Of a DNA stretch of 32,000 nucleotides, positions 5,046 to 26,873 are shown piece after piece (within the stretch, counting starts at the first letter, position 1; the number at the start of each line of letters is the position of its first letter). Both the position numbers and the translations under genes were made by a program. Source of the DNA: Telmatocola sphagniphila (lineage in GTDB: Bacteria; Planctomycetota; Planctomycetia; Gemmatales; Gemmataceae); contig NZ_CP074694.1 in the NCBI RefSeq assembly GCF_018398935.1, positions 1,950,001 to 1,982,000 on the forward strand. Reading direction: 5' to 3'. Under the pieces are notes generated by a model. That model was not told where the DNA came from and made no database searches. It worked only from the letters and a program-made list of their open reading frames with translations.

Positions 5046-5639
5046 TTGAGGTTCTCGTACATGCCACCCGATACGCGAATGTTTCGATCGCCTCCTCTCA
5101 CGTTTCCTAACATTCCTGCATTAGACGGGCTTCGAGCCGTGGCAGCTTGTCTAGTCTTGATTCATCATGGAAGTTATGGCCGATTGCCAGGGGGATGGAT
5201 CGGAGTAGATCTGTTCTTTGCGCTCTCGGGTTATCTGATCACGGGAATTCTTGCGGCAGAATTGTCACGAACGGGAAGGATACGATTCGGCCGATTTTAC
5301 ATCCGTCGTGTTTTAAGGCTTCTGCCTGCACTAATAGCTACAGTGTTGTTGGCGGGACTTCTTTGGCCAATAACCCCATTTAAAAGCCCTACTCCATCAT
5401 GGCTTGAGGCCGCTGCGGCTGCGTTGTTCTATGTCGCCAATCTTGTCCCTGCCGAATCCTTGGGGTCTCTGTCACACTGTTGGTCGTTAGCGATTGAAGA
5501 GCATTTTTATCTGCTCTGGCCACCAATACTGGCTGTCGCCTGGAGGCACGGAGGTCTACGTTTAGCGATTGTTCTCGCGGTTTCAGGGATGGCCGCTGTC
5601 GCCAGGGAAATCGCGCTTAAATTCCAAGAAAACATCTAA
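5046..5639 (+). pseudogene. Acyltransferase family 3 (OafA-like), 5' fragment interrupted by ISAs1
   Basis: ALDGLRAVAACLVLIHHG...GWIGVDLFFALSGYLITGIL...YIRRVLRLLPAL is the acyltransferase_3 N-terminal signature. Authentic coding ends at 5602. The rest of the ORF reads into the IS terminal repeat. The likely start is the ATG at 5061. Confidence 0.8.
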
Positions 5640-10019: not shown

Positions 10020-11767
10020 TCTATCCCAATAGAGTCTTTCTTCTTATCTTTTGCGCTTTTTGCGCAAACTTTTTGTGTATTTTATTAAATCGCGGTTTTG
10101 AGTTCTTTCGGGAACTCTTTGATGCGGATACGAACGGCCGCCGCCATCACCGCATTGCCTTTATCCGTCACATGATAGCGATGCGCCCGCGGGACTTTCC
10201 GAATCAATCCATGAGCGCGCAACCTTCCCAATTGTCGCGAGACTCGTTGCGTTTGCCGACGCCGTTCAGCGGCATCCCGGGCGGGCTCGTTCAACGCTTT
10301 CAGGATGTCGTGGTTGCGAAACCCATTGATGCGATTATCGCCGCATAAGACAGCCAGGAATAGCTTCTGTTCTTCGGCGTGCATCAAGTTCAAGCCGCGT
10401 CGCTTCCGGTTACCCAGAGAGACGGGTTGACTCAGTTGGTCGAGTTGACGCACGGTGACCGAAGGAGCGTCCACAACGGCCAAAGCCTCGAGATAGCGTC
10501 GATTCGAAGCGCGGGCGACTTCGAGGTAGCGATAGAAATTAGACACGCCTTTGTTCATGGGGCACCAGGCCATTTTTTCGACCCCTTTGCGGATGCATCG
10601 ACGGCGGACGTGGAACTCGCCTGGCTGGTTGATTACTGTTTCAATGCGGAGAATCCGTTCGAATTTGTCGTACATTTTCAGCCAATTGCCTTTCATGCGG
10701 TGCTTGACGCGTGTGCCCGGTGCCCGTTTCTTGCGGCCCAGAGTAAGAATTTCTCCGTCGAATTGAGGATAGAGCTTGCGTCCCAGGAATTTCATAAGGT
10801 CGTCGGCAGAGAACTGTTGAATCGAGTGATCGACCAGACGCGGGTAAAGAGCTTGTAAGTCTTCACGACTTCGGAACAAAACGTCCGTGCTGTACTCGGC
10901 TCGATCGATCACCCAGTAGTATTGGCAGCGGTTCAGCCAGTCTTTTTTCAATAGCGGATTGGCCCGGCGGACCCAACGGTCGAGAATTTTGATCCAATTC
11001 AAATGGGCAAAGCGATCGGCCAGGCGTTGAGCGGCTTCGGGATTGTCGAGTTGAACGAAGGCATTATCGCTTTGAAGGAAGCCGATCTGCTTTTCGTTCA
11101 TCTGGCGGGCCAGCCAGTCGTGACCGTTGACGTAGACTTGGACGCTGTAAGGAAAGAAGGTTTGGATGCGGACATGGATCAGTCCGAACTCGGGATCGAG
11201 AGAATAGAAATAGACGACGCGTTGCGGGCGAGACGTGAAGTACAATTCCGGTCGATCCTTGCCGGGACGCAGCTTGACGCCGCGACCGGTTTCCATGCAG
11301 CACAGCACGGCGACCAGTCCTTCCTTTAGACTGCGTTTGGCAATCTCCTCGCGGATGATCTGCTCTTTGGTGTGCTCCCCTTGGAGAAACCGATAAGGAG
11401 CACCGGCTTCGGCGGCGACTCGTTTGCCATGTTCCACCAGTTCTTCGGACAGACCTTCCAGGAAGGGAACGAAGTCTTTGCGACGCATGCCCAGTCCGCT
11501 ATCGCAGAGACGGTGGAGATCTCCATTCTTGAAAAAGGGAAGATATCCTTTGAAAATCACGCGGTCGTGACATTCCAGAACGGATAGAATGGAATCGGCG
11601 AACTTCTTCGTAAATGAGTTGATCGTCGGCATGGCGTCGAGTCTCCAACGGTTGTGTGGTTACTTCCATTGGATAAACCGACGCCATGTTCGTTAATACC
11701 TAGGGTTGCGGGCATTGCCCGCGTTAAGACACTTTCGCCGAGAGTTGCGCCTAAAAACGGAAGAGCC
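8651..11767 (-). mobile_element. Tentative ISL3-family element that would include the 515-aa ORF as a passenger
   Basis: ggctcttccgttt at 8651-8663 and its inverse aaacggaagagcc at 11755-11767 (13 bp perfect, 17/20 extended). ISL3 ends usually begin GGCTCT (from memory). I found no convincing inverted repeat between 9978 and 10084 and no 8-bp duplication, so these boundaries are uncertain. Confidence 0.35.
10085..11632 (-). CDS. Uncharacterised 515-aa protein with a C-terminal winged-helix-like domain
   Basis: A long uninterrupted ORF whose codon usage looks like neighbouring real genes. The C-terminus INGFRNHDILKAL...RVSRQLGRLRAHGLIRKVPRAHRYHVTDKGNAVM looks like a MarR/wHTH recognition unit. 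The central block KHRMKGNWLKMYDKFERILRIETVINQPGEF is one I recall only from unannotated proteins. I see no recognisable catalytic motif. Confidence 0.75.
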   Translation of the reverse strand: MPTINSFTKKFADSILSVLECHDRVIFKGYLPFFKNGDLHRLCDSGLGMRRKDFVPFLEGLSEELVEHGKRVAAEAGAPYRFLQGEHTKEQIIREEIAKRSLKEGLVAVLCCMETGRGVKLRPGKDRPELYFTSRPQRVVYFYSLDPEFGLIHVRIQTFFPYSVQVYVNGHDWLARQMNEKQIGFLQSDNAFVQLDNPEAAQRLADRFAHLNWIKILDRWVRRANPLLKKDWLNRCQYYWVIDRAEYSTDVLFRSREDLQALYPRLVDHSIQQFSADDLMKFLGRKLYPQFDGEILTLGRKKRAPGTRVKHRMKGNWLKMYDKFERILRIETVINQPGEFHVRRRCIRKGVEKMAWCPMNKGVSNFYRYLEVARASNRRYLEALAVVDAPSVTVRQLDQLSQPVSLGNRKRRGLNLMHAEEQKLFLAVLCGDNRINGFRNHDILKALNEPARDAAERRRQTQRVSRQLGRLRAHGLIRKVPRAHRYHVTDKGNAVMAAAVRIRIKEFPKELKTAI

Positions 11768-12310
11768 GTAGGATACCTATGTGAAATGGCTTCATCAGCA
11801 CAGCACTGCAGCTTCCTAATTAATCGGAATTTGGGCCGGTGATTGCTGAACCGAGAAAACAGCGCCCTTCGAACGGGGAAGTTGACTGCGTAGAACCGTT
11901 GTCTCAACACTGATAATGAGCTGACGAAACCGAACTCCCTCAGAATCGCCCGTGAAGTTTTTTCCAGATCAGAAATTCATCAGTTGCGCCACACATTTTG
12001 TTTGAGTAGATTCCGACCATCTCTTTCAGACAATCCATCGAGGTAAATAATGCGCAGCACTTAGCAAAATTCCCCTCAGCCTAGGTTTGAAAATTGAAAT
12101 CGTTCTAAAATGCGGAGCAGTATTTTCAAAAGAACGCTCGTATCCACAAGAGATACTTTTCAATCTGTAGGTGTGTGCATCTTCAAAATCGCACTCGACC
12201 TCGCCAAATGAATTAAGCCTCATAATAGTCCGCTCCGGAACGGGAAATGCAGTCATCTGAAACCTCTCGGGCTTTTTCCGAGGAACTCACTATCGGGGAG
12301 GATTCACACT

Positions 12311-12652
12311 ATGCGGAATGCGAAATTCTGGATCTTAAGCGTTTGTTTTGCCACCGCTCTGACGGGCACGGCCTTTTTGGCGGGTTCGAGCAATTCGATC
12401 AGTGCCGAGCCGCGCGAAGATTTGAAGGACCACTGGCGAAATCATGACGGCCACTGGAGCTACTGGAATGAGGCCGACAAGCAGTGGTATTACACCGATG
12501 GCGTCCACTGGTTCTTCAGCACCGGTAAAGGCTGGGAACTGTACCGATTCGACAAAAAGTTCGGACACGAAGGTTTCGAACATGGGACCTATAAGGTTCC
12601 AACTCCCGAAGTCAAAGTCGTGGTTCCCCGGCACGAAGTCTGGCATCGATAA
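12311..12652 (+). CDS. Small secreted Trp/His-rich protein (113 aa)
   Basis: GGAGG lies 8 nt upstream of the ATG. There is an N-terminal signal peptide (FWILSVCFATALTGTAFLAGSSNSISA). The mature part has repeated aromatic motifs: HWSYWNEADKQWYYTDGVHWFFSTGKGWELY. Confidence 0.6.
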   Translation: MRNAKFWILSVCFATALTGTAFLAGSSNSISAEPREDLKDHWRNHDGHWSYWNEADKQWYYTDGVHWFFSTGKGWELYRFDKKFGHEGFEHGTYKVPTPEVKVVVPRHEVWHR

Positions 12653-13097
12653 TATTTCCTGTTTCCTACTCCTGTCAGAAGTCGCCCCTTCTGACATCGC
12701 TTCATTTCGAAGCTATCGCATGCCACTTTAAATTCGAGCCAACCTCCCTGCACTTTTCTAGAGAAACCTCCACATCGGCAACTTTTGGCTGTCGTTTGGA
12801 TACGACAAAGAAAACAGTCTCCCTCCGATGGGTTCTCTAACTAACTCTTTTTTCGGTATATCCGGCTCTGAATTTTTGCAAGAAAATACGAAGTGTTCTC
12901 CCAAATTCGTCGACACTCACTCAACGAATATCGTCTCTTCTTCGAAAAAGAGTGCGTCCAAGCAATCCGCCAAAATAAAGATCAAAGAAAGGCCGACGAA
13001 GTGGAGGACCGCCCAGAAATCTTGAATTCTTTGTTGCCGAGATGAAATCATTTCACTCCCACTTTTCCGTTCCGAAGTTCGCCGAGTCATCGATTCC

Positions 13098-14975
13098 TGT
13101 AAACGCCGGTCGAAAAGGGGCTCTGTCGCACAGTTGGTGACGAGCGTTGGTTAGAATGTCTTTAGGAATTCATTCTGACGGGACGCAGCATCATGACTCT
13201 GCAGGACTTCTTTCCTCAAGAAGCCGGTTTGGTCGTCACCGATTTCGCTCTCACTCCGGATCTTTTGGCGATTGCTCTAAAAACCACATGCCCGAGTTCG
13301 CAGTGCCCCGACTGTGGCCAGCTAACATATCGGATTCACAGCCATTATCGGCGTGTATTGGCGGACTTACCCTGGCAAGCTCGACGAGTATTGCTCCGGA
13401 TCGAACTGCGAAAATTTCGATGCATGAATGCCGCTTGCCCCAGGCAAATCTTCTGTGAACGGCTACCTCATGTATTTGCTTCCCATGCTCGAACAACGGA
13501 TCGATTAAAAGCTCTCCAGAAACAGATCGGTTTGGCATTAGGCGGCAGGCCGGGTACTCGACTCACGGAGAAGTTATTCGTCCCGACCAGCAAAGACACC
13601 CTTTTACGTCGAGCCAAAGACAAAGTCGACTCCTTAACCACTCCCCGTGTTCTCGGAGTGGACGATTTCGCTTTTCGAAGAGGGCAAAACTATGGCACCA
13701 TCCTGGTGGATTTAGAAAAGCATCGCGTCCTAGACTTACTACCCGATCGAGAGGCTAAAACCCTGGCGTGTTGGTTGAAGGCCCATCCTCAAGTGGAAAT
13801 TGTCAGCCGAGATCGAGCCACGGCTTACGCCCAAGGCATTCGTGAGGCCTGTCCTCAGTCGATTCAGGTGACGGATCGTTGGCATCTTCTGAAAAATCTG
13901 CGGGAAGCCATCGAACGCTGGTTCGATGGAAAGCGGGAAAAGATTCGGGAGTTGATCCAAAAAAGTCACTGCGAAAAACCTTCCGTCATTCAGGAACTTA
14001 CCAATCAGGTAGCCGGAGGGCTCTCCGATCGGCAGAAATCCCGAATGGAGCAATAGGAGCAAGTACGTCGCTGGCATGAGGAAGGTCTATCGAAACTGCA
14101 AATTCACAAACGAACAGGTCTCCATTTCCGAACGATCGACCGCTACTTGCGGCGAGAGGATTGTCCGAATTGGCTTCCCGGACGAAGAGGTTCCTCTCGT
14201 TTGGATGTTCACGAAGGCTTTATTAAGGAGCAATTGCAACAGCCCAACCAGACGGCCCAAAAAATCCACCAAGCTTTGAGAACAAAGGACTGTTCAATCG
14301 GTTATTCGGTCGTCAAAGCCTGTGTTCGACGTTTGAAAACCGAACTGGGGCTGCCCCTTTCCCGTCCCTCAAAGCCTTTCCCACCTAATCGAGTTCCTTT
14401 GCCTTCTTCACGAAGTCTAGCCATGAACTTGTTGCAAAAATCGGAAACTCGATCCGAGGAAGGAAAACGCATTCTTGAGATTATGCACAGTGCCGGAAGC
14501 GAGTTTCAGGGGCCTATCGATTTGACTTTAGCCTTTGCAACGCTCTTAAGAGGAAAGCAGGAATCGGCATTTTCGGAAGGGCTTCAAAAAGTGGAAGCCT
14601 CCACGGTTCTCGAATTAAAGCGGTTTGCTCAAAGCTTGCGAAACGACGAAGCCGCAGTTAGAGCGGCCGTAACTCTTCCCTGGAGCAATGGCCAAGAGGA
14701 AGGACAAGTTAATCGATTGAAATCGATCAAAAGAGCGATGTTCGGTCGAGCCAAGTTCGATTTGCTGAAAGCGAGAGTGATTTGCAACGGGTAAATGAGT
14801 AACTTGCCTGGAGGTAATTTTCTCCGCTCCCTAGTGAAGCGTCAGAACCCGTGCAAATTCGCCCGCCAAAAATCGCCTGGATGAAGACAAAAAGACGGCT
14901 CTTTCGCTTAGTGGATCACCAACAAATAATCTGCACCAACTGTGCGACAGAGCCCCTTTTCGACCGGCGTTTACA
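13098..14975 (+). mobile_element. ISL3-family insertion sequence with 41-bp perfect terminal inverted repeats
   Basis: gtaaacgccggtcgaaaaggggctctgtcgcacagttggtg at 13099-13139 is the exact reverse complement of 14934-14974, with one more pairing base on each side. It encloses a single transposase reading frame. Confidence 0.9.
13193..14794 (+). pseudogene. ISL3-family transposase (long form, 533 codons) interrupted by one in-frame TAG at 14054-14056
   Basis: ORFs 13193-14056 and 14147-14794 are in the same frame, and the sequence between them translates without further stops (EQ*EQVRRWHEEGLSKLQIHKRTGLHFRTIDRYLRREDCPNW...). N-terminal zinc finger CPDCG...CMNAACP, core LGVDDFAFRRGQNYGTILVDL...VSRDRATAY...VTDRWHLLKNL, and C-terminal SNGQEEGQVNRLKSIKRAMFGRAKFDLL. 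Confidence 0.85.
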
Positions 14976-15467
14976 CTGCTGATCTCCGAGATTCTAAGGC
15001 CGAGTCATCAATGCCTCGGCGAAACAGAGCGATGCCAGATAACGGCTTTGAGTATTGTCGATTGTCCGGCGGAGATCGGGATGTCGGCAATATTCGAGAA
15101 GGGATAAGTTACGAGCGGCTTCGTGCTGCGGATGATTCGGATCTCGCTGCACGTGGTTAATATGGGATAACGCTCGCGAGATGGGATCGCGAAGCAGCGT
15201 CACCATCATGGGAATGTAACCCAGATATAAAGGGAGCAAACCACCAAAATGTCCGACCAGGACGCGGGTCGACGCAGAGATCTTGTGACCAGTAGCTAGG
15301 AAATCATCCCAGATCTACTGCGGGGAGACGGCCTCGGGAGCATATTGATCCCGAAAGGCGTGATGTAAACTCGTACCGGCCGTTTTGGGAATATGAAAAA
15401 AATAGAGTAGCTTCGAAGGCGCCGACGTTTCGTTCTCCTGTGAAGTTACCAGATTTTTTGGGATCAT
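14976..15467 (-). pseudogene. Sulfotransferase-family pseudogene (in-frame TAG, cut by the ISL3 element)
   Basis: Hand translation from the ATG at 15467 gives MIPKNLVTSQENETSAPSKLLYFFHIPKTAGTSLHHAFRDQYAPEAVSPQ*IWDDF...MVTLLRDPISRALSHINHV...DNTQSRYLA. It has the PAPS-binding HIPKTAGTS loop and an RDP motif. The stop is TAG at 15315-15317. Coding runs into the IS boundary at 14975. Confidence 0.7.
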
Positions 15468-16085
15468 CTTTCACCGGTTTCGGTAAGGACTTTCACGCTA
15501 ATCCTGACGAGTTTGGTTTGCTCAAGGGGGAAAATCTGAAACGAAATTCTCCCTATTTATCGTCTGGTTATGGAATTAGATGAAGTGGAAGATTCGGCCG
15601 CACTGATTTTTCATTATTGAGGCCAAGTTCGGGAAAAGGAAAACTTTGGATAACTCCCACTGAATGCCTCGGAGTTCCCTGGGAATTGATAAATCCCGTT
15701 GAAACCACGAATTAATCTAAGCACTAGGAAGGCGGATCATCTTGTTTAACATGTTGACTGCCTAATCGACTTTCGACCCGCCTGAACGAATTGAATGTGG
15801 AGGACGTTTGCTTTGGCCGCTCGAACTTGTTCTCGAAGCTACCCTCCGAAAGGCACTCATCGTAAGGGTGAGCGGGTCCGCGTACTCGAATCTCCTTAAA
15901 GGCTGTCGCTATTTGAACTCTCTCTAAATCTTATCTAAATTCCCGCCCTTTTTGCGTCATTACCTTTGAGAGAAGTCTAGCTTTGGCTTCTTTCCAGTAC
16001 GCCTCACTTGGGGCTTCACTTTACCCCTTTTCAACACACGACAACCGCCGAACCCCGGCGGTGGTTTCGTTTCTGGAGACTTCTC

Positions 16086-16367
16086 ATGCTGATTCCGATG
16101 TCCGTTCCCGTTTCGATTCCCGTGCTGTCGCTCGAAGATCGCCAGCAGGCGTTCATGACGATCCTGCCCTTGCTGGAGACGAAGGCTCGATTTGCCTTTC
16201 GTGATCTGGAAAGCCGCCACGATCGCGATGACGCGGTAGCCGAAGTGGTTGCCCTGGCCTGGGAGCATTTCAGGCACTCCCGGTCCCTGCCCGCCTCACT
16301 CTTCATTAAGCAGATTCCGCTGTTTATCGCCACCGTCCGGCAACAGCTCTCAGTTCGCCCAGTTTAA
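16086..16367 (+). CDS. Small hypothetical protein (93 aa), first gene of the AAA+/vWA string
   Basis: GGAGA lies 8 nt upstream of the ATG at 16086. An upstream hairpin (16044-16063) argues against the longer 16008 start. The segment DRDDAVAEVVALAWEHF faintly resembles sigma-70 region 2, but this is unsupported otherwise. Confidence 0.5.
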   Translation: MLIPMSVPVSIPVLSLEDRQQAFMTILPLLETKARFAFRDLESRHDRDDAVAEVVALAWEHFRHSRSLPASLFIKQIPLFIATVRQQLSVRPV

Positions 16368-16399
16368 ATCTTTCCTTCTCTTCCAAAAAGGACTTTCTC

Positions 16400-16594
16400 A
16401 TGTCGCGACACGTTTTACTCGAAGAGTTCCATCTGTCGTTTCTGATTCTCGCCGATACGGCCGAAGCCGAAGTGCAGAGAATCCGCCGGCAATTGAATCG
16501 CTCCCGCTTCCAGGCTCTGCTCCGAAGAACCCTGATTCATTTCTTCCGGAAGTATCGGGCTCTCGATTCGGTCGTTTTCAAACTGTCCCGGTAG
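16400..16594 (+). CDS. Small hypothetical protein (64 aa), Arg-rich
   Basis: AAGGA lies 8 nt upstream of the ATG. It is 32 nt after the preceding stop, co-directional, with no recognisable domain. Confidence 0.5.
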   Translation: MSRHVLLEEFHLSFLILADTAEAEVQRIRRQLNRSRFQALLRRTLIHFFRKYRALDSVVFKLSR

Positions 16595-16667
16595 AGCCGT
16601 CTTGCGGTGTCTGCCAATTTGCCTTTCTTCCTATCGCCTAATTCCCAACCTTACCAAGGACCTTCCC

Positions 16668-17798
16668 ATGAAAACCCTCGTTCCCGACTGCGCGGCCCTG
16701 CAAGCCCATTTCGCTTTGCTCCGTTCGGAATTAGCTTCCGGTCTGATCGAACGGGACGAAGAGATCGATTTGTGTCTCACCGCTCTGATCGCCCAAGAGC
16801 ATCTGCTCCTGGTCTCCCCGCCCGGCTGTGCCAAGTCCTTACTGCTCGATTCACTCCTGAAAGCCACCGGCGGCTCCAAGTTCTCGATCCTGCTCACCAA
16901 GTTCACCGTCCCCGAAGAGGTCTTTGGGCCGATCTCGATTCAGGGACTGAAGGAAGACCGCTTCCAGAGAATCACCAACGGCAAACTCCCCGAAGCCGAC
17001 TTCGCTTTCCTCGATGAGGTCTTCAAAGCTTCCTCGGCGATTCTGAATACCCTCCTGAAGATCCTCAACGAACGGACCTTCGATGCCGGCGAAGGTTCCT
17101 TGCGCAAGGTTCCCCTCAAGCTCTGCGTGGCCGCTTCCAACGAATGGCCGGCCCCGGAGAGCGCTCAGGAACTGGCCGCGCTCTTCGACCGCTTCACTCT
17201 GCGGAAGAGTTTATCGCCGATTCGCTCGCAGGCGGGTCGGAAGAAGCTGCTCTGGAATCGGGAGCATACTCCCAAGGTCTCGGTGCACCTGAAGCCAACC
17301 GATCTAGAAGCCGCTCGCCGCTATGCCCGGGAGTTACCCTGGTCCGTTTCTGCCCAGGAAGCCCTGGAAACGATCCTTAAAGACCTAGCCAAGGAGGGCA
17401 TTCAACCGGGCGATCGCCGCCAGTTCAAAGCGGTCGGCATCGCGCAGGCGTACGCTTTCCTGCACGGGGCCGAGCAGGTCGAACCGGAGCATCTGGAAGT
17501 GGCCGCCCACGTTCTCTGGGACGATCCCCGGGAACAGCCCCAAAAAGTCGCTCAGGTGATCGCCCGAATTGCCAATCCGATCGGCATGCGGCTGAATCAA
17601 CTGCTCTTGGAAGTCGAACAAGTTCTGTCCAGCACCGATGTCCGCAAGCTGCCCGAGACGGCCAAAGCCGCCGCCAAGCTCGGCGAGATCGACAAGCAGC
17701 TGAGTGAATTGAAGTCCAATGACCGGGTCACCCGAACCCGGAACTACGTTCGCGAACAGCTCCGACAACTCAAACTCGCCTCGCTGGAGGCGATCTAA
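16668..17798 (+). CDS. MoxR-class AAA+ ATPase, RavA-like core (376 aa)
   Basis: Walker A LLLVSPPGCAKS; Walker B and downstream FAFLDEVFKASSAILNTLLKILNERTF; sensor 1 CVAASNE; LFDRF. The later block GDRRQFKAVGIAQAYAFLHGAEQVEPEHLEVAAHVLWDDP parallels E. coli RavA [21 protein letters not shown]...LKDCLWYD. AAGGA precedes the ATG at 16668. The 16602 start in the ORF track is probably too long. Confidence 0.9.
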   Translation: MKTLVPDCAALQAHFALLRSELASGLIERDEEIDLCLTALIAQEHLLLVSPPGCAKSLLLDSLLKATGGSKFSILLTKFTVPEEVFGPISIQGLKEDRFQRITNGKLPEADFAFLDEVFKASSAILNTLLKILNERTFDAGEGSLRKVPLKLCVAASNEWPAPESAQELAALFDRFTLRKSLSPIRSQAGRKKLLWNREHTPKVSVHLKPTDLEAARRYARELPWSVSAQEALETILKDLAKEGIQPGDRRQFKAVGIAQAYAFLHGAEQVEPEHLEVAAHVLWDDPREQPQKVAQVIARIANPIGMRLNQLLLEVEQVLSSTDVRKLPETAKAAAKLGEIDKQLSELKSNDRVTRTRNYVREQLRQLKLASLEAI

Positions 17799-17813
17799 CC
17801 CCAGGGAAAAACC

Positions 17814-19187
17814 ATGAATGCCGAAGAACTCCGTAAACTCTTCGATCTCGATCGCCCGCTCTCGCCCAGTCCCTCCTCCGCCGAAGACTCCCCTTCTCCT
17901 TTCTCTTCCGCTTCGCCTCCCTCTGCTCCCTCGGGGAATCCAACCGCTCTGCAGGTCGATTCCTGGGGGCTGCGTCGGGGTAGCGATCTGCTGCGGGATT
18001 CTCCCCGCTTGCAATCGTTCGGTCTGGAGGATTACGCCATCGCCGATTTTCATACGGCGGCTTTTGAACCGGAACCGCAGCTGTTGGAGGATTGCCAGGA
18101 TCCGGTTCGCCGGGGCTTTTTGGTCGAGCTGTTCCAGACTCCGGAGTATCAGGCGTTGCACGCCGGGACTCGACTGGATGAAGTCTCCTCCGAGATTACC
18201 ACCCTGCACTTCGCTGAACAATTCGCCGCTCTGCGGAATGCGGCTGCCACGGCCGAACCCGAGATCGCCACATTAAAAGCGGTCAGCCGGGCGGTGCTGG
18301 CCGCTCGCGAAGAGGTCGACCAGTGCCGGGAAGCGATTACTGCTCTCGGCGGCGGGCTCGGTCCTGGAACGCCGGGCTCGGTCGATCCTAAGGCGATCGC
18401 TCAACTATTCCAGCGGGTCCGTCAGGACCCCACGTTGCGAAGGATCTGCGAACTGGCCGGTCGTTATCGGCGACTGGCCCAATCGAGCCAGCGTCGCAAA
18501 TGTGCCCATGGTCAGGACGATCTGGTCGGAGTGACTACCTCAGGAGACTTGGCCCAACTGCTGCCGCACGAGTTGGTCCGCTTGGGAATTCCGGAGTTAG
18601 AACTGGATACCCTGCGACGTCTGGCGGAACGGCAGTGCCTGGCCCGGGACTACCAGTCCTTGGAGCCGGTGGGCAAAGGTCCGATCGTGGTGGTCATCGA
18701 TGAATCGGGCTCGATGGCGGGCGATAAAGTGCAAACAGCCAAGGCTCTCGCTTTGGCTTTGGCTTGGATCGCCCGGCAGCAGCGTCGCTGGTGCGGCCTG
18801 ATTGCCTATTCCGGCGATACCGGTGAACGACTGTTGTCCCTGCCGCCGTCCCGCTGGGACGAATCGGAAGTGCTCGACTGGCTGGGGGCCTTCCTGGGGG
18901 GCGGTTCGACCTTGGATGTTCCGATTGTGGAACTGCCTTGGATGGTGGAACAGCTCTGGGCTCCGGCGGGGATTACCGATGTCTTGATCCTGACCGATGC
19001 CATCTGCTCCATTCCCCTGGAGTTGCAGCAGAATTTTCTGCGCTGGAAGCAATCGGTTTCGGCGCGGGTGATCTCGTTGGTCTTGGCCGATACTGCGGGA
19101 GACCTGGCGGCGTTGTGCGATGAAGTCCATCTGGTTAAATCGCTCGAAGTCACCGAGACCGCCATCGGTTCCGTGCTGTCGATCTAG
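17814..19187 (+). CDS. von Willebrand factor A domain protein, ViaA-like (457 aa)
   Basis: The helical middle region LLPHELVRLGIPELELDTLRRLAERQCLARDY is followed by GPIVVVIDESGSMAGDKVQTAKALALALAWIA (MIDAS DxSGS) and FLGGGSTLD. E. coli ViaA has the same order. The N-terminus is Pro/Ser-rich and low-complexity. It starts 15 nt after the AAA+ stop. Confidence 0.9.
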   Translation: MNAEELRKLFDLDRPLSPSPSSAEDSPSPFSSASPPSAPSGNPTALQVDSWGLRRGSDLLRDSPRLQSFGLEDYAIADFHTAAFEPEPQLLEDCQDPVRRGFLVELFQTPEYQALHAGTRLDEVSSEITTLHFAEQFAALRNAAATAEPEIATLKAVSRAVLAAREEVDQCREAITALGGGLGPGTPGSVDPKAIAQLFQRVRQDPTLRRICELAGRYRRLAQSSQRRKCAHGQDDLVGVTTSGDLAQLLPHELVRLGIPELELDTLRRLAERQCLARDYQSLEPVGKGPIVVVIDESGSMAGDKVQTAKALALALAWIARQQRRWCGLIAYSGDTGERLLSLPPSRWDESEVLDWLGAFLGGGSTLDVPIVELPWMVEQLWAPAGITDVLILTDAICSIPLELQQNFLRWKQSVSARVISLVLADTAGDLAALCDEVHLVKSLEVTETAIGSVLSI

Positions 19188-19212
19188 TCTCCCTTTTTTC
19201 CATCGTGGTGAA

Positions 19213-19256
19213 AGCTCGCAGATCTTCTTATTCAGAAGATTCCGCGGGCTTTTTTC
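19213..19256 (+). terminator. Intrinsic-terminator-like hairpin between the vWA gene and the 292-aa ORF
   Basis: agctcgcagatcttct-tattc-agaagattccgcgggct forms a stem with an internal bulge and one mismatch, followed immediately by tttttt (19250-19255). Confidence 0.45.
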
Positions 19257-19294
19257 GTTTCCATTTTTCATTCTTGAACCTGAAGGAACTCTCT

Positions 19295-20173
19295 ATGAGT
19301 GCTTTGATCAAAACCAACATTATGCCGAAGGTAACTCCGGGAGCTCGCCTCTTGGGCGAAATCATCACCTGGACCGCTTCGGGAGCCAGCGTCCGGCACA
19401 GTGACTTGATTCGAGCCCTGAAAGAAGTCGGCCTCGATGAAAGCGTGGCCCGGGAGTTAGCACCCCGGCACGCTTTTGCCCGGGCCTGTCGCAAGCTGTC
19501 GGAAGCCCGAATTATTCGGCAGATTGTCGAAGATGAAGTCTCGATTCAATTTCAGTTTACCCAGGAATCGAAACAGGGGGACCGCTTCAGCTACGACTTC
19601 GAAACCCTCCTCACGCTGACCAAGAAGACCGGGCAGGTCCACTGCGACAAACGGGAACTGGCTCTATTGGCTCAGGAAGAACTGGATCGCTGCATTGCGG
19701 TGCGAACCGGCAGCGATATCACCCGAATTGTGCAGAAACTTTTTGAGCGGGAAGCCGATCTTTTCCCGATTCGGCCCCAAGGCGGAGCCTACTTCGTGCC
19801 ACAGGTGCACGCCGGCTTCATCGATCGGGTGCAGAGCTTGCTGAAGCAGCTTAATGGTCAGATGCTGCGCTTCCCGGTGCCGGAAGGAACCGCCAGCGGA
19901 GATGTCTCGGTGAAGGAAGCGGTGGCTTCCGGATTATCGGCTCTGATTACGGAACATGAGGAAGCGATCGCTTCGTTCGGCGAAGATACCCGGCCCGATA
20001 CGGTGGAACGAGCCGCTGAGCGGATTCGCAACACCAAGTTCAAAGTCGAAGCCTATGCCGCTCTGCTGGCCGATCAAAAGCATCAGCTGGAGCTTTCCTT
20101 GGCCACGGCTTCCCGAAAGCTCCGTCAGAAGGTCGAAAGTCTGGCTGCTGAGCGGGAAGCGGTCTTGGTTTAG
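19295..20173 (+). CDS. Uncharacterised 292-aa protein
   Basis: GAAGGA lies 8 nt upstream of the ATG at 19295. Notable segments are IRPQGGAYFVPQVHAGFIDRVQSLLKQLNG and a helical, coiled-coil-like C-terminus (KFKVEAYAALLADQKHQLELSLATASRKLRQKVESLAAE). I cannot place it in a named family. Confidence 0.75.
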   Translation: MSALIKTNIMPKVTPGARLLGEIITWTASGASVRHSDLIRALKEVGLDESVARELAPRHAFARACRKLSEARIIRQIVEDEVSIQFQFTQESKQGDRFSYDFETLLTLTKKTGQVHCDKRELALLAQEELDRCIAVRTGSDITRIVQKLFEREADLFPIRPQGGAYFVPQVHAGFIDRVQSLLKQLNGQMLRFPVPEGTASGDVSVKEAVASGLSALITEHEEAIASFGEDTRPDTVERAAERIRNTKFKVEAYAALLADQKHQLELSLATASRKLRQKVESLAAEREAVLV

Positions 20174-20269
20174 TTCGGCCGGTTTTCAACTGATTCGCCA
20201 TTCGGTATTTTTTGCCCTTTGCCCACCTACTCGCCCTTTCACTCCAACACTACTCACCGAAGGAAGATC

Positions 20270-21616
20270 ATGATCCATTTGCAGCGCCGGCAAGTCCGGC
20301 AGTTACGCAGCCTGTTCAAAAAATTGGGAGCGGCCCGAAGCCCGGCTCCTCAGAATCTCTTACTCCAAACCGATGCGAGCGGACTTACGATTCAGGGCTC
20401 GATCGGCGAAGTCACGGCGATTTACCGGCAGCCGGGTTCTTTCGCCGAAGAACAGATGACCATTCCTTTTGCCGTGTTCAATGATACCGCCGGTTCGGAC
20501 GACAGCGTCATCGAGATCGTCGCACTGGTCCACCAGAAGTTGCGCGTCGCCTGGAGTTCGAATACGGTACCGCAGATTCGCGGGTACGAGATTCCCATCA
20601 GTGTCGAAAGCCTGCCTTTACCGGAAGTCTGGACGCCGATGGATCTGCGTCTGCGGGAATCTTTATGCGAGGCGATGAAGACGGCCAGTCCCGAGGCCAC
20701 ACGGTACGCCGTCAATTACATCCAGTTGCGGGGGAGAACCGGCGAAGTCATCGGAACCGATACCCGGCAGCTCTTCATCGAATCAGGATTCGCTTTTCCT
20801 TGGGACGATGAGGTCTTGATCCCCCGGTCTGGACTCTTCGCTGCGGAAGAACTCTCGGCGGACAGACTGGAAATCGCTCGTACAAAAACGCACCTCTGGT
20901 TCCGCTTGGGGTCTTGGATGATCGCCTTGCTAATCGCCTCGGAAGCCCGTTATCCCGAAGTCCATCGAGCGATTCCTGCCTCTTTGGAAGCGACGCGCTG
21001 GAGGATAGACCCGGGAGAATCGCACGGGTTGGCTCAGTGCTTGAAGCAGTTGCCGGGCGAGAAAGATCCGCATCGACCGGTGACGGTGGAACTCAACGGT
21101 CACGTTGCGATTCGGGCTCGAGGAACCGAAAGTCTGCAAACGACCGAAGTTCACCTCAATCGCTCTCAGGTGGAAGGGAATCCGATGAGTCTCGCCTTGG
21201 ATCGAGCTTACCTGCAGCGAGCCTTGCAGTTGGGTTTTTCGGAGTTCCAGATCGTTCATCCCGATAAACCGATAGTCTGCCAGCAGGGCAGCCGAAGGTT
21301 CGTCTGCATGCCGCTGGGTAAAACCTCGGTGATCGCGGCTTGTCCAGAGGCCTTGCAGGTGGAGTTGGGAGAGACTGCCCGAGCGATGAGCGGCAAAAAT
21401 ACTTCGACGAGAATACGAGATCGGGCCAGGAACTTCAGTTCGGCGATTCTGGCCGGTCTTCTGGAAGAAGCGAACTCCCTGCAATCGGTAGTTCAAGCCC
21501 TGCTGGAGCGATTGACCTATTTAAGCGAAGAGCTCCATCGGTTGCTTCCTCGCCGGAAATCGGAGCGCATCGGTGTAAATACTCCGTCCGAAGCCATGAT
21601 CGATCCATTTCTTTAA
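20270..21616 (+). CDS. Divergent DNA polymerase III beta-subunit (sliding clamp)-like protein with a ~80-aa C-terminal extension (448 aa)
   Basis: GAAGGAAG precedes the ATG at 20270. Clamp-family landmarks appear in the right order and spacing. YAVNYIQLRGRTGEVIGTDTRQLFIE compares with LNGV...ATDGHRLA. ASEARYPEVHRAIP compares with GKFPDYRRVIP. MSLALDRAYLQRAL compares with IGFN.KYLLD.L. RRFVCMPL compares with YLVMPM. An extra helical tail (LLEEANSLQSVVQALLERLTYLSEELHRLL) follows. Confidence 0.65.
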   Translation: MIHLQRRQVRQLRSLFKKLGAARSPAPQNLLLQTDASGLTIQGSIGEVTAIYRQPGSFAEEQMTIPFAVFNDTAGSDDSVIEIVALVHQKLRVAWSSNTVPQIRGYEIPISVESLPLPEVWTPMDLRLRESLCEAMKTASPEATRYAVNYIQLRGRTGEVIGTDTRQLFIESGFAFPWDDEVLIPRSGLFAAEELSADRLEIARTKTHLWFRLGSWMIALLIASEARYPEVHRAIPASLEATRWRIDPGESHGLAQCLKQLPGEKDPHRPVTVELNGHVAIRARGTESLQTTEVHLNRSQVEGNPMSLALDRAYLQRALQLGFSEFQIVHPDKPIVCQQGSRRFVCMPLGKTSVIAACPEALQVELGETARAMSGKNTSTRIRDRARNFSSAILAGLLEEANSLQSVVQALLERLTYLSEELHRLLPRRKSERIGVNTPSEAMIDPFL

Positions 21617-21666
21617 CCGTTCGAAACTTCGATTCTTTTTCATTCCAACCCTATCGGAGAAAATGC

Positions 21667-21822
21667 ATGAGTGCGAAGCACAAATTGAATGCGGCCTATA
21701 TGTCGGGCTCGTTTCTGATAGCGATCTTAGTCGGAGCTTTCTTTCAATCGACGGCGATTGTCCTGGGTACGCTGGCCTTCTTGCTCTTCATGGATTTCGT
21801 TGCGGGCAATATCCGCAAGTGA
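21667..21822 (+). CDS. Small membrane protein (51 aa, predicted single or double TM)
   Basis: GGAGA lies upstream of the ATG at 21667. The sequence is MSAKHKLNAAYMSGSFLIAILVGAFFQSTAIVLGTLAFLLFMDFVAGNIRK. It is the 3' part of track ORF 21340-21822, and the terminator hairpin follows directly. Confidence 0.5.
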   Translation: MSAKHKLNAAYMSGSFLIAILVGAFFQSTAIVLGTLAFLLFMDFVAGNIRK

Positions 21823-21829
21823 TCCCCTG

Positions 21830-21867
21830 CCTCCCCCGTTGCTAGCACCGTCTAATAACGGGGGAGG
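21830..21867. terminator. 11-bp perfect GC-rich hairpin shared by convergent transcription units
   Basis: cctcccccgtt (21830-21840) pairs with aacgggggagg (21857-21867) across a 16-nt loop. It lies 8 nt after the stop of the last plus-strand ORF and overlaps the end of the minus-strand ORF 21852-22079. Confidence 0.55.
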
Positions 21868-22079
21868 AGTATTTCCATGCGACGGAAAAAAAGGATTGGC
21901 TTCGCTTTAGCTATCAGCGATCCTCGGATAGGCAAAATGAGAGGCGCGTCGGGTTTATCCAACGCTTCGAACCTTCCCGCTTTCCCGCCAAGTTCGGTCG
22001 TTACCCATTCAAACTGGCGCACGAAGCAGGGCACTGGCGGCTTCATCGCAAGTTCTTTCAGCATTGAGTCAACCCACAT
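21852..22079 (-). CDS. Hypothetical protein (75 aa), doubtful
   Basis: An ORF only, with no domain I recognise. The sole support is that it ends in the shared hairpin, as a convergent gene would. Confidence 0.25.
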   Translation of the reverse strand: MWVDSMLKELAMKPPVPCFVRQFEWVTTELGGKAGRFEALDKPDAPLILPIRGSLIAKAKPILFFRRMEILLPRY

Positions 22080-22431
22080 TCGCTCTTTGCCGAAGGCGTG
22101 AAACGACCGGAGTCTATTTATCGTTCCCGAGATAGGGAATCTATCGAAATCCGGGCCAACCGATTTGCTCCAGGCCTATTGCGGTCCCGAGAGATGATAA
22201 AAGGCACATGGCACGAATTGCCAAGCAGGAGAGACCCCATTTTCTCCCCATCATGCGAGCATCTTTAGAGAACGGTGATACCGATAAGCGCTTTTTGGAA
22301 AACGCGATTCGCCCTCGGGCAACGTTATTTCAGTTTTCTCCAAGCGCACTGAGGATACGTTCAACAAACTGGGTTTTTGCCGTGAAAACGCGAACAGTCG
22401 CTATTGGATTGAGATCTGGTGCCCCGCGAAA

Positions 22432-23307
22432 TCAGTATACCTCCTTAAGCAATGTCGGTATTTGATCTTTGCGAAGGGCATCGATTACAACTTGGCTTGA
22501 TTTCCAGGGATCGCCAGGAATTCGAACGATCAGTTTGCCCCACACTTTGCCGAAAGCCGCAAGGGCATCCGTCTCGGAATAGCTGACGCCAGTCGGGAGT
22601 AAGGGGGCGATGTCTTCAATGAGGCTTTGGTTCAGCTTCCGGAGCATCCGCTCTTCGGCATTCGCCCGACTGATTGGCTTCTCTTCCAACGCGAGGTAAT
22701 GGTTGAAGCAACCGATCAACCTATCGCTATCCAGTTCCAGCTGTGAAAGTCCTTCGTTCAAATCAAACAGGTCACGGTTTTTATTCCTCTGAAGCAGTGC
22801 CCGAAGTTTCGTGCCGAATAGTTCTTCCGGCTCGAAGGAGATAATCTCAGTTCTCGCTTTGTGCCAGTCACTGCTGACCTCAAACGGATACGATTGCAGG
22901 CCGTGAAGATTCTGCTGCTCCCGCGTATTGATCTCGATTTTGAGCTTAAGCGGCTTGCCGTCACCTATTTCTGGAGTGAACTGGAAGACCAGATGCATCG
23001 AATGGAGAGCCTGATTCCGCTTACAGTTGCCAAGCCAGGACAGTGCTTCACGAATGGCATCCACCGTCGGCCCAATTGGCTCAGCTCTCATCTGAACCAA
23101 ATCAATATCTTCAGAGTAGCGAAGCGGTTCCGAAAAGAGCAGTTTGTTGATCGCCGTGCCGCCGCGAAAAGCGATCTTGCCTTGGAGTTTCTCGCTGTTA
23201 AACAAATCGCAAAGCGCCCGGCAAATGATCAGGTCCTGTTCCACCTGCCGAAGATCGGGCCACGGAGCATTTGCTGTCCATTCTTGTAAGTGTGCCAGTG
23301 GTATCAC
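22432..23307 (-). CDS. abiEii: AbiEii/AbiGii-family nucleotidyltransferase toxin (DUF1814)
   Basis: VEQDLIICRALCDLF...KIAFRGGTAINKLLFSEPLRYSEDIDLV is the characteristic AbiEii N-terminal NTase motif. It overlaps the upstream antitoxin gene by ATGA (23304-23307). Confidence 0.9.
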   Translation of the reverse strand: MIPLAHLQEWTANAPWPDLRQVEQDLIICRALCDLFNSEKLQGKIAFRGGTAINKLLFSEPLRYSEDIDLVQMRAEPIGPTVDAIREALSWLGNCKRNQALHSMHLVFQFTPEIGDGKPLKLKIEINTREQQNLHGLQSYPFEVSSDWHKARTEIISFEPEELFGTKLRALLQRNKNRDLFDLNEGLSQLELDSDRLIGCFNHYLALEEKPISRANAEERMLRKLNQSLIEDIAPLLPTGVSYSETDALAAFGKVWGKLIVRIPGDPWKSSQVVIDALRKDQIPTLLKEVY

Positions 23308-24122
23308 GCTTCGAGCTCCACTGGCACATTGATGATTAGCATCCAGTCAGGGTTCTTCTCGTCCAGCAATCCGAGTTCAGCAACCAGCGGTTTGACTGCG
23401 GGATCCAGCGCCTTGAAGGACTTCGCTTTCTTGGCGAAGTCCTTGAGCGACTCGGCTTGCCGATTATGACCGAAACGCTCCAGGAAATAGCCAAGACGTC
23501 TGACCGCAGAATTTTCATAGGCACTTGCGGCCTTCGCCAGAATTCGCGGATTGGCATTTTTACCCAGATCATGAACGGCCTGCGCCGCACCGTTGATTCC
23601 CGCTGCTTTATGGAAGTAACGGCAGATATCGAGCAAGGTCAATTCCAAGCCTGCGATCTGGGCGAACCCGGCTTCCGTTTTGAGCTTCGAGAGCCACGCT
23701 GGATTGTTTGCTTCTTCAAAAGTAGCCGAAGTCTGGAACAAAAAATCGACTCTCTGGCGACCGACAGCAATCTTCGGGAGTTGCTTTGGTGCAATAACCT
23801 GAAAGATCATCGCCGCCTGATGCGACGATCCGTGAAACGCCGCCGCACGCAGCAGAGATATTCGGTAATCCAGCCCCAAATGCTTCATCAACGGATCAAT
23901 CCAGCGTGAGGGGTCGGGAGCGCCAAGTTGTCGGTCCTCAGGCCTCAAAATCAAGTAGAACCCCCGGCGGGGAGAAACAAGCAGCCCTTTCCTCTTAACC
24001 CGACCAATCGCTGCTTGGAAGGCTTCCGCGGAAAGCCCAAGCTCAGCCAAAGCTTCTTCTTTGGTGAAGTAGCCTCTCCCTCTGGCAAGCTGCGATTCGA
24101 TGTATTCCCTCACATTTTTCAT
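23304..24122 (-). CDS. abiEi: AbiEi-family antitoxin / transcriptional regulator (type IV TA)
   Basis: N-terminal wHTH (YFTKEEALAELGLSAEAFQAAIGRVKRKGLLVSPRRGFYLI), a C-terminal domain of AbiEi_4 size, and translational coupling to AbiEii. Confidence 0.85.
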   Translation of the reverse strand: MKNVREYIESQLARGRGYFTKEEALAELGLSAEAFQAAIGRVKRKGLLVSPRRGFYLILRPEDRQLGAPDPSRWIDPLMKHLGLDYRISLLRAAAFHGSSHQAAMIFQVIAPKQLPKIAVGRQRVDFLFQTSATFEEANNPAWLSKLKTEAGFAQIAGLELTLLDICRYFHKAAGINGAAQAVHDLGKNANPRILAKAASAYENSAVRRLGYFLERFGHNRQAESLKDFAKKAKSFKALDPAVKPLVAELGLLDEKNPDWMLIINVPVELEA

Positions 24123-26168: not shown

Positions 26169-26873
26169 TTACTTTGCCCGCTTAGCCCTCTCATCGTACC
26201 AAGCCTGCAACAGAAGAAAACTCGCGAAAACCATCACGACCCACTGATAAAAAGTCAACCCCGAGTCCATCCTTGGCTCAATTCGAATGAACTCCATTAC
26301 GAAGCGAAAAACGCAATATGCGATGAGGTAAATCTTCAACCGCTGGGTCGCGAATTGATTGGAAATCTGCCAGCGCGCCAGTATCCAGACCCAAAAGCCG
26401 TGAAAAACCGATTCGTACAACTGCGTTGGATGACGTGGAATTCCATCGCCAAAATCGTAGCCCCAGGGCAATTCTGTTGGCTTACCCGCACAGCATCCAT
26501 TCGCAAAACAGCCAAGCCGTCCAATCGTCAGAGCGAGCGCCAGAGGCAGAGCGAGACCATCTCCAGTTTTTACGCGAATACCGCGAATCGCCTTGCATAT
26601 TTCGACCCCAAGATAGGCTCCCATCAATCCCGTGGTTAACGTTTTACCGTCTGAAAACCAGGTTTCCCACGAATACATCGCCGGATCATTCATCAATACG
26701 AAAGGTAACTTGGCGCTAATCGTTCCCCCAAAAAATGCAGAGATTCCTATCCAGATTCGATCCATCAGAGGCAGGCGAGCCGATGGATCATTGACGGCAA
26801 ACAGCCGACGGCCCAAAAGGAAAACCAGAACGGCCAAGATCATGCAGGCGCCATAGGCAAAGCGCCCGCTCAT
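26169..26873 (-). CDS. Lgt-family (prolipoprotein diacylglyceryl transferase-like) membrane protein, short form (234 aa)
   Basis: FGGTISAKL, LALTIGRLGCFANGCCAGKPTELPWGY and IPRHPTQLYES match the Lgt signature blocks, and the protein is multi-TM. Its start overlaps the radical-SAM stop (ATGA at 26870-26873). Confidence 0.75.
   Translation of the reverse strand: MSGRFAYGACMILAVLVFLLGRRLFAVNDPSARLPLMDRIWIGISAFFGGTISAKLPFVLMNDPAMYSWETWFSDGKTLTTGLMGAYLGVEICKAIRGIRVKTGDGLALPLALALTIGRLGCFANGCCAGKPTELPWGYDFGDGIPRHPTQLYESVFHGFWVWILARWQISNQFATQRLKIYLIAYCVFRFVMEFIRIEPRMDSGLTFYQWVVMVFASFLLLQAWYDERAKRAK

Follow-up and report, generated by a model that had tools for sequence, protein, structure and literature searches.

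What might explain why a planctomycete genome carries a MoxR-class AAA+ ATPase and a von Willebrand factor A (vWA) partner in one string with a protein that had resisted assignment and a divergent homologue of the bacterial beta sliding clamp? The string comprises seven same-strand open reading frames (ORFs) at 16086-21822 of a 32,000-nucleotide stretch of Telmatocola sphagniphila DNA (contig NZ_CP074694.1, positions 1,950,001 to 1,982,000), hereafter the window. An original prediction, made from the sequence alone, took a host DNA-sensing conflict system as its leading reading and a module of an unrecognized mobile element as the alternative. Our analysis favours the alternative, and the host conflict system is demoted because homologous loci lie in phages, plasmids and integrative elements, where ssb, primase, dnaN, helicase and exonuclease genes are common neighbours. 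It is very probable that the MoxR, vWA and DUF6744 proteins form a module borne by mobile elements, and the best explanation of the window block as a whole, with a likelihood slightly better than even, is a recombinase-less, core-only copy of that module. The seven ORFs, all with ATG starts, are:

16086..16367, plus strand: ORF1, small protein of 93 amino acids (aa)
16400..16594, plus strand: ORF2, conserved small protein of 64 aa
16668..17798, plus strand: ORF3, MoxR-class AAA+ ATPase of 376 aa
17814..19187, plus strand: ORF4, ViaA-like vWA protein of 457 aa
19295..20173, plus strand: ORF5, DUF6744 protein of 292 aa
20270..21616, plus strand: ORF6, divergent beta sliding clamp homologue of 448 aa
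21667..21822, plus strand: ORF7, predicted membrane peptide of 51 aa

ORF5, which at first could not be assigned, belongs to the Pfam family DUF6744 (PF20529; 41.9 bits against a cutoff of 27, E = 7.6e-11), a family that is also matched by all 56 aligned ORF5 relatives (best E = 2e-97), and it has more than 950 relatives in Planctomycetes at 60-70% identity. The AlphaFold2 model (predicted local distance difference test, pLDDT, 88.8) consists of an N-terminal beta/alpha region that possibly resembles a winged helix, a central alpha/beta domain in which the invariant motif R-x-x-G-G-x-Y-F-x-P sits, and three long C-terminal helices. The model found no fold match in the PDB; in BFVD it matched uncharacterized proteins of tailed viruses with template modelling (TM) scores of 0.67-0.73, among them gp25 of the haloarchaeal virus HVTV-1. 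Profile comparison with hhalign agrees, linking DUF6744 to a Moorella phage protein (1e-48) and to HVTV-1 gp25 (4e-13, 97.9%). Another protein of the same virus, gp69, was tested as the DUF6744 homologue and rejected in favour of gp25.

How constant is the company that DUF6744 keeps? One genome per species was scanned with the DUF6744 alignment, giving 80 loci, several of them sharing one genome, and all from Planctomycetes (Gemmataceae, Isosphaeraceae and relatives) bar a few metagenome-assembled genomes (MAGs) labelled otherwise. Four loci of the latter kind (L009, L036, L063 and L065) carry a typical planctomycete module, at 60-68% identity, on contigs titled 'uncultured Alcaligenaceae bacterium', a label that is probably a binning or taxonomy error. 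Across 82 planctomycete loci MoxR comes first and is followed, after an insert that varies from 0 to 1.5 kb, by vWA, DUF6744, a protein of about 100 aa and the clamp-like gene. Among loci with enough flank to be counted, vWA lies immediately 5' of DUF6744 in 48/54, MoxR is present in 35/41 and the clamp-like gene in 26/38, so that the expectation of four large genes conserved as neighbours was borne out; in 4/38 a 428-aa nuclease-like protein is encoded downstream and no clamp was detected. Orthologues in the syntenic loci are 65-68% identical for DUF6744, 61-67% for MoxR and 58-61% for vWA, and only 31-39% for the clamp-like protein. In planctomycetes, then, the triad of MoxR, vWA and DUF6744 has been joined by the protein of about 100 aa, which is lost in the window, and by a dedicated divergent beta-clamp paralogue.

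The surroundings of these loci point to small integrative elements. The module is multi-copy in Gemmataceae and Isosphaeraceae genomes, with four divergent copies in CJuql4, four in STL-PLA25 and five in the SXHE MAG. A gene for a large serine recombinase lies 2-4 kb upstream on the same strand in nine loci and in an IMG/VR provirus (L093), typically followed by GP88 and then by an ExoX-type exonuclease gene before the module begins. Eleven loci have GP88 and eight have ExoX, while 16 have a PAPS-reductase-like insert, which often occupies the gap between MoxR and vWA; four loci of a divergent subgroup have a tyrosine integrase 1-2 kb past DUF6744. Genes for Xre-type helix-turn-helix (HTH) proteins, for a protein with a predicted C-terminal HTH and for small hydrophobic proteins recur, and the 10 kb on either side of the planctomycete loci showed no genes for capsid, terminase or conjugation. 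Since genes of chromosomal type (DUF1552, sulfatases, sigma factors and leucine-rich repeat proteins) return a few kb beyond the clamp, the data point to multi-copy integrative elements of only about 10-15 kb, with presumed borders and excision.

Individual loci show further variation. In the subgroup L062, L064, L066, L069 and L075, DUF6744 is about 51% identical, MoxR-vWA-DUF6744 is followed by a 213-aa lysine-rich protein and, in four of the five, next by the tyrosine integrase, and neither the clamp nor the gene of about 100 aa could be detected; the element is here in a minimal form. Four loci of the MAG STL-PLA25 (L018 at 11515-13868, L019 at 11538-13891, L044 and L050) encode a cysteine-rich 348-aa protein together with a ThiF/E1-like protein (Pfam ThiF, 2.5e-22), a pair that is placed between the gene of about 100 aa and the clamp in three loci and between vWA and DUF6744 in L050, and that may represent cargo for ubiquitin-like conjugation. 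In L036 (629-2701) the vWA gene is directly preceded by a group II intron reverse transcriptase/maturase that has an HNH domain, and a relative occurs in L070.

The window copy is a compact variant, without the gene of about 100 aa and without an insert between MoxR and vWA. Because no recombinase, GP88 or ExoX remnant adjoins the block, we read the copy as a core-only remnant stranded between insertion sequence (IS) elements and the AbiE pair described below.

Planctomycete DUF6744 gave no tblastn match in phages, and links to phages were reached only through the Bacillota and Moorella homologues and through structure. With Bacillota DUF6744 proteins as the bridge, the triad was found in the following carriers:

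Brevibacillus marinus plasmid: triad with SRAP, dnaN, DUF6094, a DEAD helicase, DUF6573 and an integrase
Alicyclobacillus plasmid pDSM3922.1: triad with ssb, a CHC2 primase, a directly adjoining dnaN, and DUF6094 with SNF2
Bacillota chromosomal island (L091): triad with PDDEXK, a canonical DnaN, ArdC-N and a DNA methylase
Paenibacillus island (L090): triad, with the vWA gene followed by GmrSD_N
Nocardia farcinica plasmid pNF1: AAA-vWA-DUF6744 in the order of the window, adjoining a conjugative (type IV secretion system) coupling protein
Streptomyces plasmid: triad in the gene order of the window
Rubrobacter plasmid: triad in the gene order of the window, with a DEAD helicase and a RepB primase downstream
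Moorella jumbo phage MTATph1: DUF6744 (CDS0119), MoxR and vWA beside ribonucleotide reductase and a resolvase
Bacillus jumbo phage 0305phi8-36: DUF6744 (ORF046) with MoxR/vWA (orf066/orf063)
IMG/VR viral contigs with a DUF6744 relative: triad in 10 of 14, in three different gene orders

The carriers of the triad range from small integrative elements and large plasmids to jumbo phages and come from at least three bacterial phyla. That the linkage of three proteins survives permutation of gene order across phyla and element types is strong evidence for a functional unit. HVTV-1 encodes, among replication genes, AAA and vWA proteins as well as the remote DUF6744 homologue; its AAA ATPase has no pairwise similarity to the window MoxR, and so the archaeal-virus parallel is one of DUF6744 alone. 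MoxR, vWA and DUF6744 are the unit conserved across phyla, and the association with a clamp is real but lineage-specific, since none was found in actinobacterial plasmid loci or beside the triad in viral loci.

What kind of ATPase is at the center of this unit? In the characterized MoxR-vWA pairs, such as RavA-ViaA, NorQ-NorD and CobS-CobT, a chaperone works with a co-chaperone: the metal ion-dependent adhesion site (MIDAS) of the vWA protein grips the partner and the AAA+ ring remodels it. This chaperone and co-chaperone logic is also discussed in PMC7159879. The motifs SPPGCAKS, FLDEVFKA, VAASN and DESGSM, on which the first assignments were based, are all present in the translations, and in ORF3 they supply Walker A (SPPGCAKS), Walker B (FLDEVF) and sensor-1 (VAASN). 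ORF3 had been called RavA-like. It does lack the C-terminal domains of RavA, as claimed, consisting of an AAA+ module, a lid and a helical tail with no LARA domain, but its best Pfam family is bpMoxR (6.3e-52), not RavA proper; AAA_5 (8e-21), AAA_lid_8 (9e-9) and AAA_3 are matched too, as is phrog_19600 in PHROGs (7e-65). Against the NCBIfam RavA equivalog (NF010054) it scores 191.8 bits, with a cutoff of 681, and covers model positions 7-328 of 498. A role as a clamp loader AAA+ protein of the RFC or gamma-complex type was rejected, as the Pfam matches are of the MoxR clade and include no RFC or DNA_pol3_delta family. ORF4 is a ViaA-like vWA protein with a complete MIDAS, as proposed: a helical N-terminal region of about 280 aa is followed by a C-terminal vWA domain with the motifs DESGSM...GGGST...LTDA, at which the protein ends without any fused effector, and orthologues of 419-474 aa have the same architecture. 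It matches the NCBIfam ViaA equivalog (NF008230) over residues 225-398 only (75.8 bits, cutoff 500), Pfam VWA_2 (5e-4) and phrog_24053 (7e-19), and it aligns over its full length with CDS0114 of Moorella phage MTATph1, which adjoins the phage MoxR (24% identity, E = 1e-33).

Compared with the Escherichia coli RavA-ViaA pair, both likeness and difference can be discerned. The closest solved structure to ORF3 is RavA (3nbx; E = 1e-48, residues 14-289), the ORF3 AAA+ module aligning to RavA residues 12-292 with the alignment ending at about residue 292; the best NCBIfam match of ORF4 is ViaA, over its MIDAS-containing half; and the two genes are 15 nucleotides apart. However, ORF3, at 376 aa versus 498 aa for RavA, has neither the triple-helical nor the LARA domain, the equivalog cutoffs are far off, and the window pair has no LdcI, Frd or Nuo context, being obligatorily linked to DUF6744 and located on mobile elements. 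The phages 0305phi8-36 and MTATph1 are further parallels in that MoxR (32-37% identical), vWA and DUF6744 occur in the same genomes, although with no adjacent clamp. The papers on these phages noted just the MoxR/vWA pair, with a generic role as a 'MoxR-type metalloprotein chaperonin', and DUF6744 and the link to plasmids and integrative elements went unrecognized.

The lineage-specific partner, ORF6, had been described as a three-domain clamp-like protein with a coiled-coil tail, and both the AlphaFold2 model (pLDDT 83, predicted TM score 0.74) and Foldseek support a three-domain clamp fold, to which the model adds a helical tail. Three clamp domains (residues 1 to about 365) are followed by a disordered linker and a 34-residue C-terminal helix (392-425). 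The best 50 Foldseek matches in the PDB are all bacterial DnaN (E = 1e-21 to 1e-19, TM(target) about 0.75, 16-20% identity), including 4tsz at 1.8e-21 over about 378 aligned columns (TM(target) 0.75), and PHROGs independently gave phrog_947, 'DNA polymerase processivity factor' (7.6e-7). As in DnaN (e.g., PDB 2POL and 4TSZ), the predicted three-domain fold has six channel-lining helices, and the first ORF6 helix is strongly basic (RRQVRQLRSLFKK). Unlike DnaN, ORF6 has an extension of about 80 residues at the C terminus with a long helix and is encoded in a mobile-element operon rather than at dnaA-dnaN-recF; moreover, 13 members of the clamp-like family gave no Pfam match at E<=1, DNA_pol3_beta, _2 and _3 included. 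Its relatives form a large family, 3,641 representative clusters at 50% identity in an exhaustive profile search (1,277 at E<=1e-30), the 150 best of which are mostly about 470 aa long. T. sphagniphila itself has a 96% identical match and two further paralogues at 80% and 70%. In phage and plasmid collections tblastn of ORF6 found no match, and a first scan of genome contigs with the clamp protein gave no confirmed locus. Clamp genes co-directional with DUF6744, AAA and vWA do occur on Bacillota plasmids (Alicyclobacillus pDSM3922.1 and Brevibacillus marinus); those encode a canonical DnaN, annotated dnaN by PGAP, and the L091 clamp has Pfam DNA_pol3_beta domains, whereas the planctomycete clamp is a separate, far more divergent family with a helical tail.

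Several further features of the clamp-like family were observed. Most members end in a conserved SL(K/R)QL after the long helix (alignment columns 470-512); in the window protein and its nearest paralogue the last residues are DPF(L/I). Judged from the residues themselves, these ends loosely recall clamp-binding peptides and might form a self- or partner-binding tail. Members that are 34-41% identical are also encoded without the triad, in L003 and a JGI 3300047160 contig, in strings with DUF2997 and a classical AAA (PF00004) ATPase of about 495 aa, the L003 string additionally having a PD-(D/E)XK nuclease and an ATP-dependent DNA ligase. These strings may be a second mobile-element context with a different AAA+ partner. 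The 428-aa protein of L006-type loci was considered as a diverged clamp and rejected (hhalign probability 0.1%).

What might the module do? If it works as RavA-ViaA, NorQ-NorD and other MoxR-vWA pairs do, the vWA MIDAS would bind an acidic peptide in a partner, which the MoxR hexamer would then remodel or release at the cost of ATP, with DUF6744 acting as the specific adaptor or substrate of the pair. The recurrent company of ssb, primases, clamps, exonucleases, helicases, ArdC and methylases suggests action on DNA-bound complexes, and the target of the module would be the complex that serves DNA replication or establishment of the element once the latter has entered or been excised. An element-encoded clamp would be a platform that brings host clamp-binding enzymes to the element DNA. 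A role in DNA replication or establishment, rather than in defence or counter-defence, is one to which we assign a likelihood a little short of even. The clamp is a possible client of the MoxR-vWA chaperone, and just a possible one because it is not a universal partner of the triad. A more specific proposal, that the triad is a three-component AAA+ machine that remodels sliding-clamp or replisome complexes on element DNA, providing dedicated, non-RFC, MoxR-based clamp handling that has co-evolved with the tailed beta-clamp paralogues of planctomycetes, is unlikely in our judgement.

A number of observations weigh against a mobile-element replication module as the reading of the locus. Only about one in three of the planctomycete loci with adequate flanks showed a recombinase, and no replication initiator, primase or helicase was recognized in the planctomycete elements. 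No clamp was found at the loci on the Nocardia, Streptomyces and Rubrobacter plasmids, nor next to the triad in the phage and viral-contig loci examined, and none was detected in about a third of planctomycete loci. DNA binding by DUF6744 is weakly suggested by HTH-type matches (E = 0.03-0.06) and by our reading of the model. In some loci the triad is followed by a nuclease-like gene (the 428-aa protein, with a weak REase-ARP match, or GmrSD_N), which would suit a conflict system as well. The MoxR and vWA genes of phage 0305phi8-36 are part of an island that the phage can lose and still grow in the laboratory (PMC3357382); the pair is therefore accessory rather than core replication machinery, and the defence and counter-defence readings stay alive.

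Could the module instead be an anti-phage or anti-plasmid conflict system carried as mobile-element cargo? Kaur et al. 2020 (eLife 9:e52696, PMC7159879) described MoxR-vWA ternary conflict systems of the VMAP, iSTAND, FtsH and beta-propeller types, on which the Pfam family bpMoxR was built. The MoxR-vWA-DUF6744 triad would be the ATP-gated sensor or regulator core of a fifth type of 'ternary system', with interchangeable downstream effectors: the clamp-like protein, the 428-aa restriction endonuclease-like protein or GmrSD_N. The window locus resembles the published systems, which are common in planctomycetes and actinobacteria, in having an adjacent MoxR and vWA (15 nucleotides apart) with a conserved third protein, in its bpMoxR membership and in its MIDAS (DESGSM...T...D). 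The 428-aa protein encoded about 3 kb downstream in the clampless planctomycete loci, GmrSD_N after the Paenibacillus vWA gene, the AbiE pair and IS-rich island that the window copy abuts, the several divergent copies per genome and the dispensability of the phage pair in the laboratory all fit the defence account. The third protein is nevertheless DUF6744; no VMAP, iSTAND, FtsH or beta-propeller Pfam domain was found in any of the seven ORFs, and PMC7159879 mentions neither DUF6744 nor clamps. The vWA protein lacks the C-terminal effector array of VMAP-type systems, the components are strongly conserved (58-68% identity across families) rather than diversifying, and a toxic effector is missing in many loci, the window included. 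The published systems sit on chromosomes of multicellular bacteria, whereas the DUF6744 triad is found within lytic jumbo phages and in plasmid backbones beside transfer and replication genes. The expectation that no named defence system would match also held: PADLOC-DB v2.0.0 gave nothing significant for the seven proteins, the sole match being HEC-01B to the vWA protein at E = 0.025. On this evidence defence cargo is an unlikely explanation. A shade less likely is counter-defence or host takeover, akin to the anti-restriction genes of plasmid leading regions, in which the chaperone pair and DUF6744 would dismantle or sequester a host complex (for example a defence complex, or the replisome and clamp partners) early after entry. 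Genes usual in plasmid establishment or anti-restriction regions (ArdC-N, DNA methylases, ssb, DUF6094 with SNF2/DEAD helicases, SRAP) as neighbours, the occurrence of the triad in phages, plasmids and integrative elements alike, and again its dispensability on a laboratory host (PMC3357382) suit it; no similarity to a known anti-defence protein was found, and that all three proteins are so well conserved across phyla speaks for a constant target, perhaps one of the element itself, and not for fast-evolving host defences.

Two other explanations have far less in their favour. MoxR-vWA pairs of viruses have been tied to virion assembly, in tail development of the Acidianus two-tailed virus and, as a proposal, in group 2.2 jumbo phages (Iyer et al. 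2021, PMC7824862), and the triad does occur in jumbo phages. But it is also found on plasmids and on the planctomycete elements, where no structural genes were found in the 10 kb on either side, and the phage triads lie among DNA-metabolism rather than structural genes, so that a chaperone for virion or particle assembly is very improbable. Still less credible is an ordinary housekeeping RavA-ViaA or metal cofactor-insertion pair that stands next to unrelated genes by chance. RavA as the closest structure and RavA and ViaA as the top NCBIfam matches speak for it, but the scores fall far under the equivalog cutoffs, the RavA C-terminal domains are missing, no gene for a respiratory or metalloenzyme client is nearby, and the DUF6744 linkage is conserved across phyla in mobile elements; the synteny data effectively refute this explanation.

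The string is organized much as originally described. The spacings between its ORFs (32, 73, 15, 107, 96 and 50 nucleotides) match exactly, and Shine-Dalgarno-like purine-rich motifs are present 5-9 nucleotides 5' of the ATG in all seven: GGAGA, AAGGA, AAGGA, AGGGA (vWA), GAAGGA, GAAGGAAG and GGAGA in ORF order. The G+C content at third codon positions (GC3) of all seven frames, 0.64-0.73, is high, as expected for genuine genes in this genome. Two hairpins bracket the string:

16044..16062, plus strand: upstream hairpin with a 7-bp GC stem, 24 nucleotides before ORF1
21830..21867, plus strand: terminal hairpin, read from the sequence, with a perfect 11-bp GC-rich stem (21830-21840 / 21857-21867)

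Both the leader hairpin and the perfect 11-bp stem had been anticipated. The latter was not listed by the terminator scan and, having a 16-nucleotide loop and no T-tract, was ruled out as a canonical intrinsic terminator. Of the proposed promoter, the sequence TTGAAC-17-TAAATT does exist at 15913-15941, but the promoter scan gave no site in 15000-22500; planctomycete promoters may be unlike the sigma-70 consensus used in that scan. Rfam, tRNA and repeat scans of the window were negative for RNA genes, for a tRNA that could serve as attachment site and for direct repeats on either side of the block.

The small ORFs are partly shared with related loci. ORF1, which has no Pfam match, is akin to the N-terminal part of a protein of about 200-240 aa with a predicted C-terminal HTH that is encoded upstream of MoxR (39-50% identity by tblastn to L001 1719-2363, L006 6657-7250 and a short form, L027 6186-6452). 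ORF2 has relatives in 9-13 loci (31% identity, E = 4e-8, to L004 13348-13542), where the homologue lies just 3' of the clamp gene; in the window it is instead upstream. Small hydrophobic ORFs (clusters c12, c14 and c18) come after the clamp gene in many related loci. ORF7 itself has a single weak tblastn relative (L073 1271-1486, E = 8e-6), and because it is so weakly conserved its membership in the module is uncertain.

The convergent AbiE pair and the IS-rich setting noted earlier were confirmed by Pfam. AbiEii (291 aa, Pfam 4e-27) and AbiEi (272 aa), a type IV toxin-antitoxin or abortive-infection pair, are encoded on the minus strand at 22432-24122, tail-to-tail with the module; both are intact and overlap by 4 nucleotides. 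Since no related locus carries AbiE, the pair is outside the conserved module. Transposase genes of the ISL3, IS4/IS5, DDE_3 and DDE_5 types are abundant in the window. To the left of the module, an ISL3-family IS at 13098-14975 has 55-nucleotide inverted repeats (13098-13152 / 14921-14975) that are 89% complementary and imperfect 18-nucleotide direct repeats at its flanks (13081-13098 / 14999-15016); it is probably inactive, because its transposase gene is broken into two ORFs (13193-14056 and 14147-14794). Next to it, at 14994-15467, are two short minus-strand ORFs whose sequences suggest pieces of a sulfotransferase gene. The motif FFHIPKTAGTS occurs in one, and the one that was scanned against Pfam matched no family. 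Together with a glycosyltransferase gene at 3805-4794 and an acyltransferase gene at 5046-5639, these putative fragments suggest that the module and the IS elements landed in a gene cluster for cell-envelope glycans. Further to the right, at 26169-28423 on the minus strand, a gene of the Lgt family (prolipoprotein diacylglyceryl transferase in Pfam) overlaps by 4 nucleotides the gene for a 517-aa radical-SAM protein with an HMPTM-type N-terminal zinc ribbon, an unusual pairing.

To our knowledge, MoxR-vWA pairs are widespread and only a handful have a known client, for instance in respiratory complexes, in the insertion of metal cofactors, in the assembly of ribosomes or in the tail of one archaeal virus, and the mobile elements of Planctomycetes are almost undescribed. 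Searches of open-access papers and preprints on DUF6744 and the DUFs encoded near it, on MoxR/vWA in connection with clamps or with anti-phage defence, and on planctomycete integrative elements turned up no earlier description of the module and no mention of DUF6744 or of this gene association. What is new here is the MoxR-vWA-DUF6744 triad common to phages, plasmids and integrative elements, the large family of tailed clamp paralogues without a Pfam model and, as we infer, small integrative elements that form a multi-copy family in Gemmataceae and Isosphaeraceae. DUF6744, a family of unknown function, gains its first context, and its genetic lock to one MoxR-vWA clade offers a concrete client hypothesis for that whole ATPase clade, with a sliding-clamp gene also within the triad string in two phyla. 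Should clamps or replisomes prove to be what the module manipulates, mobile elements would have a new route for taking over host replication; should its role be defence or counter-defence, the MoxR-vWA conflict systems would gain a new architecture.

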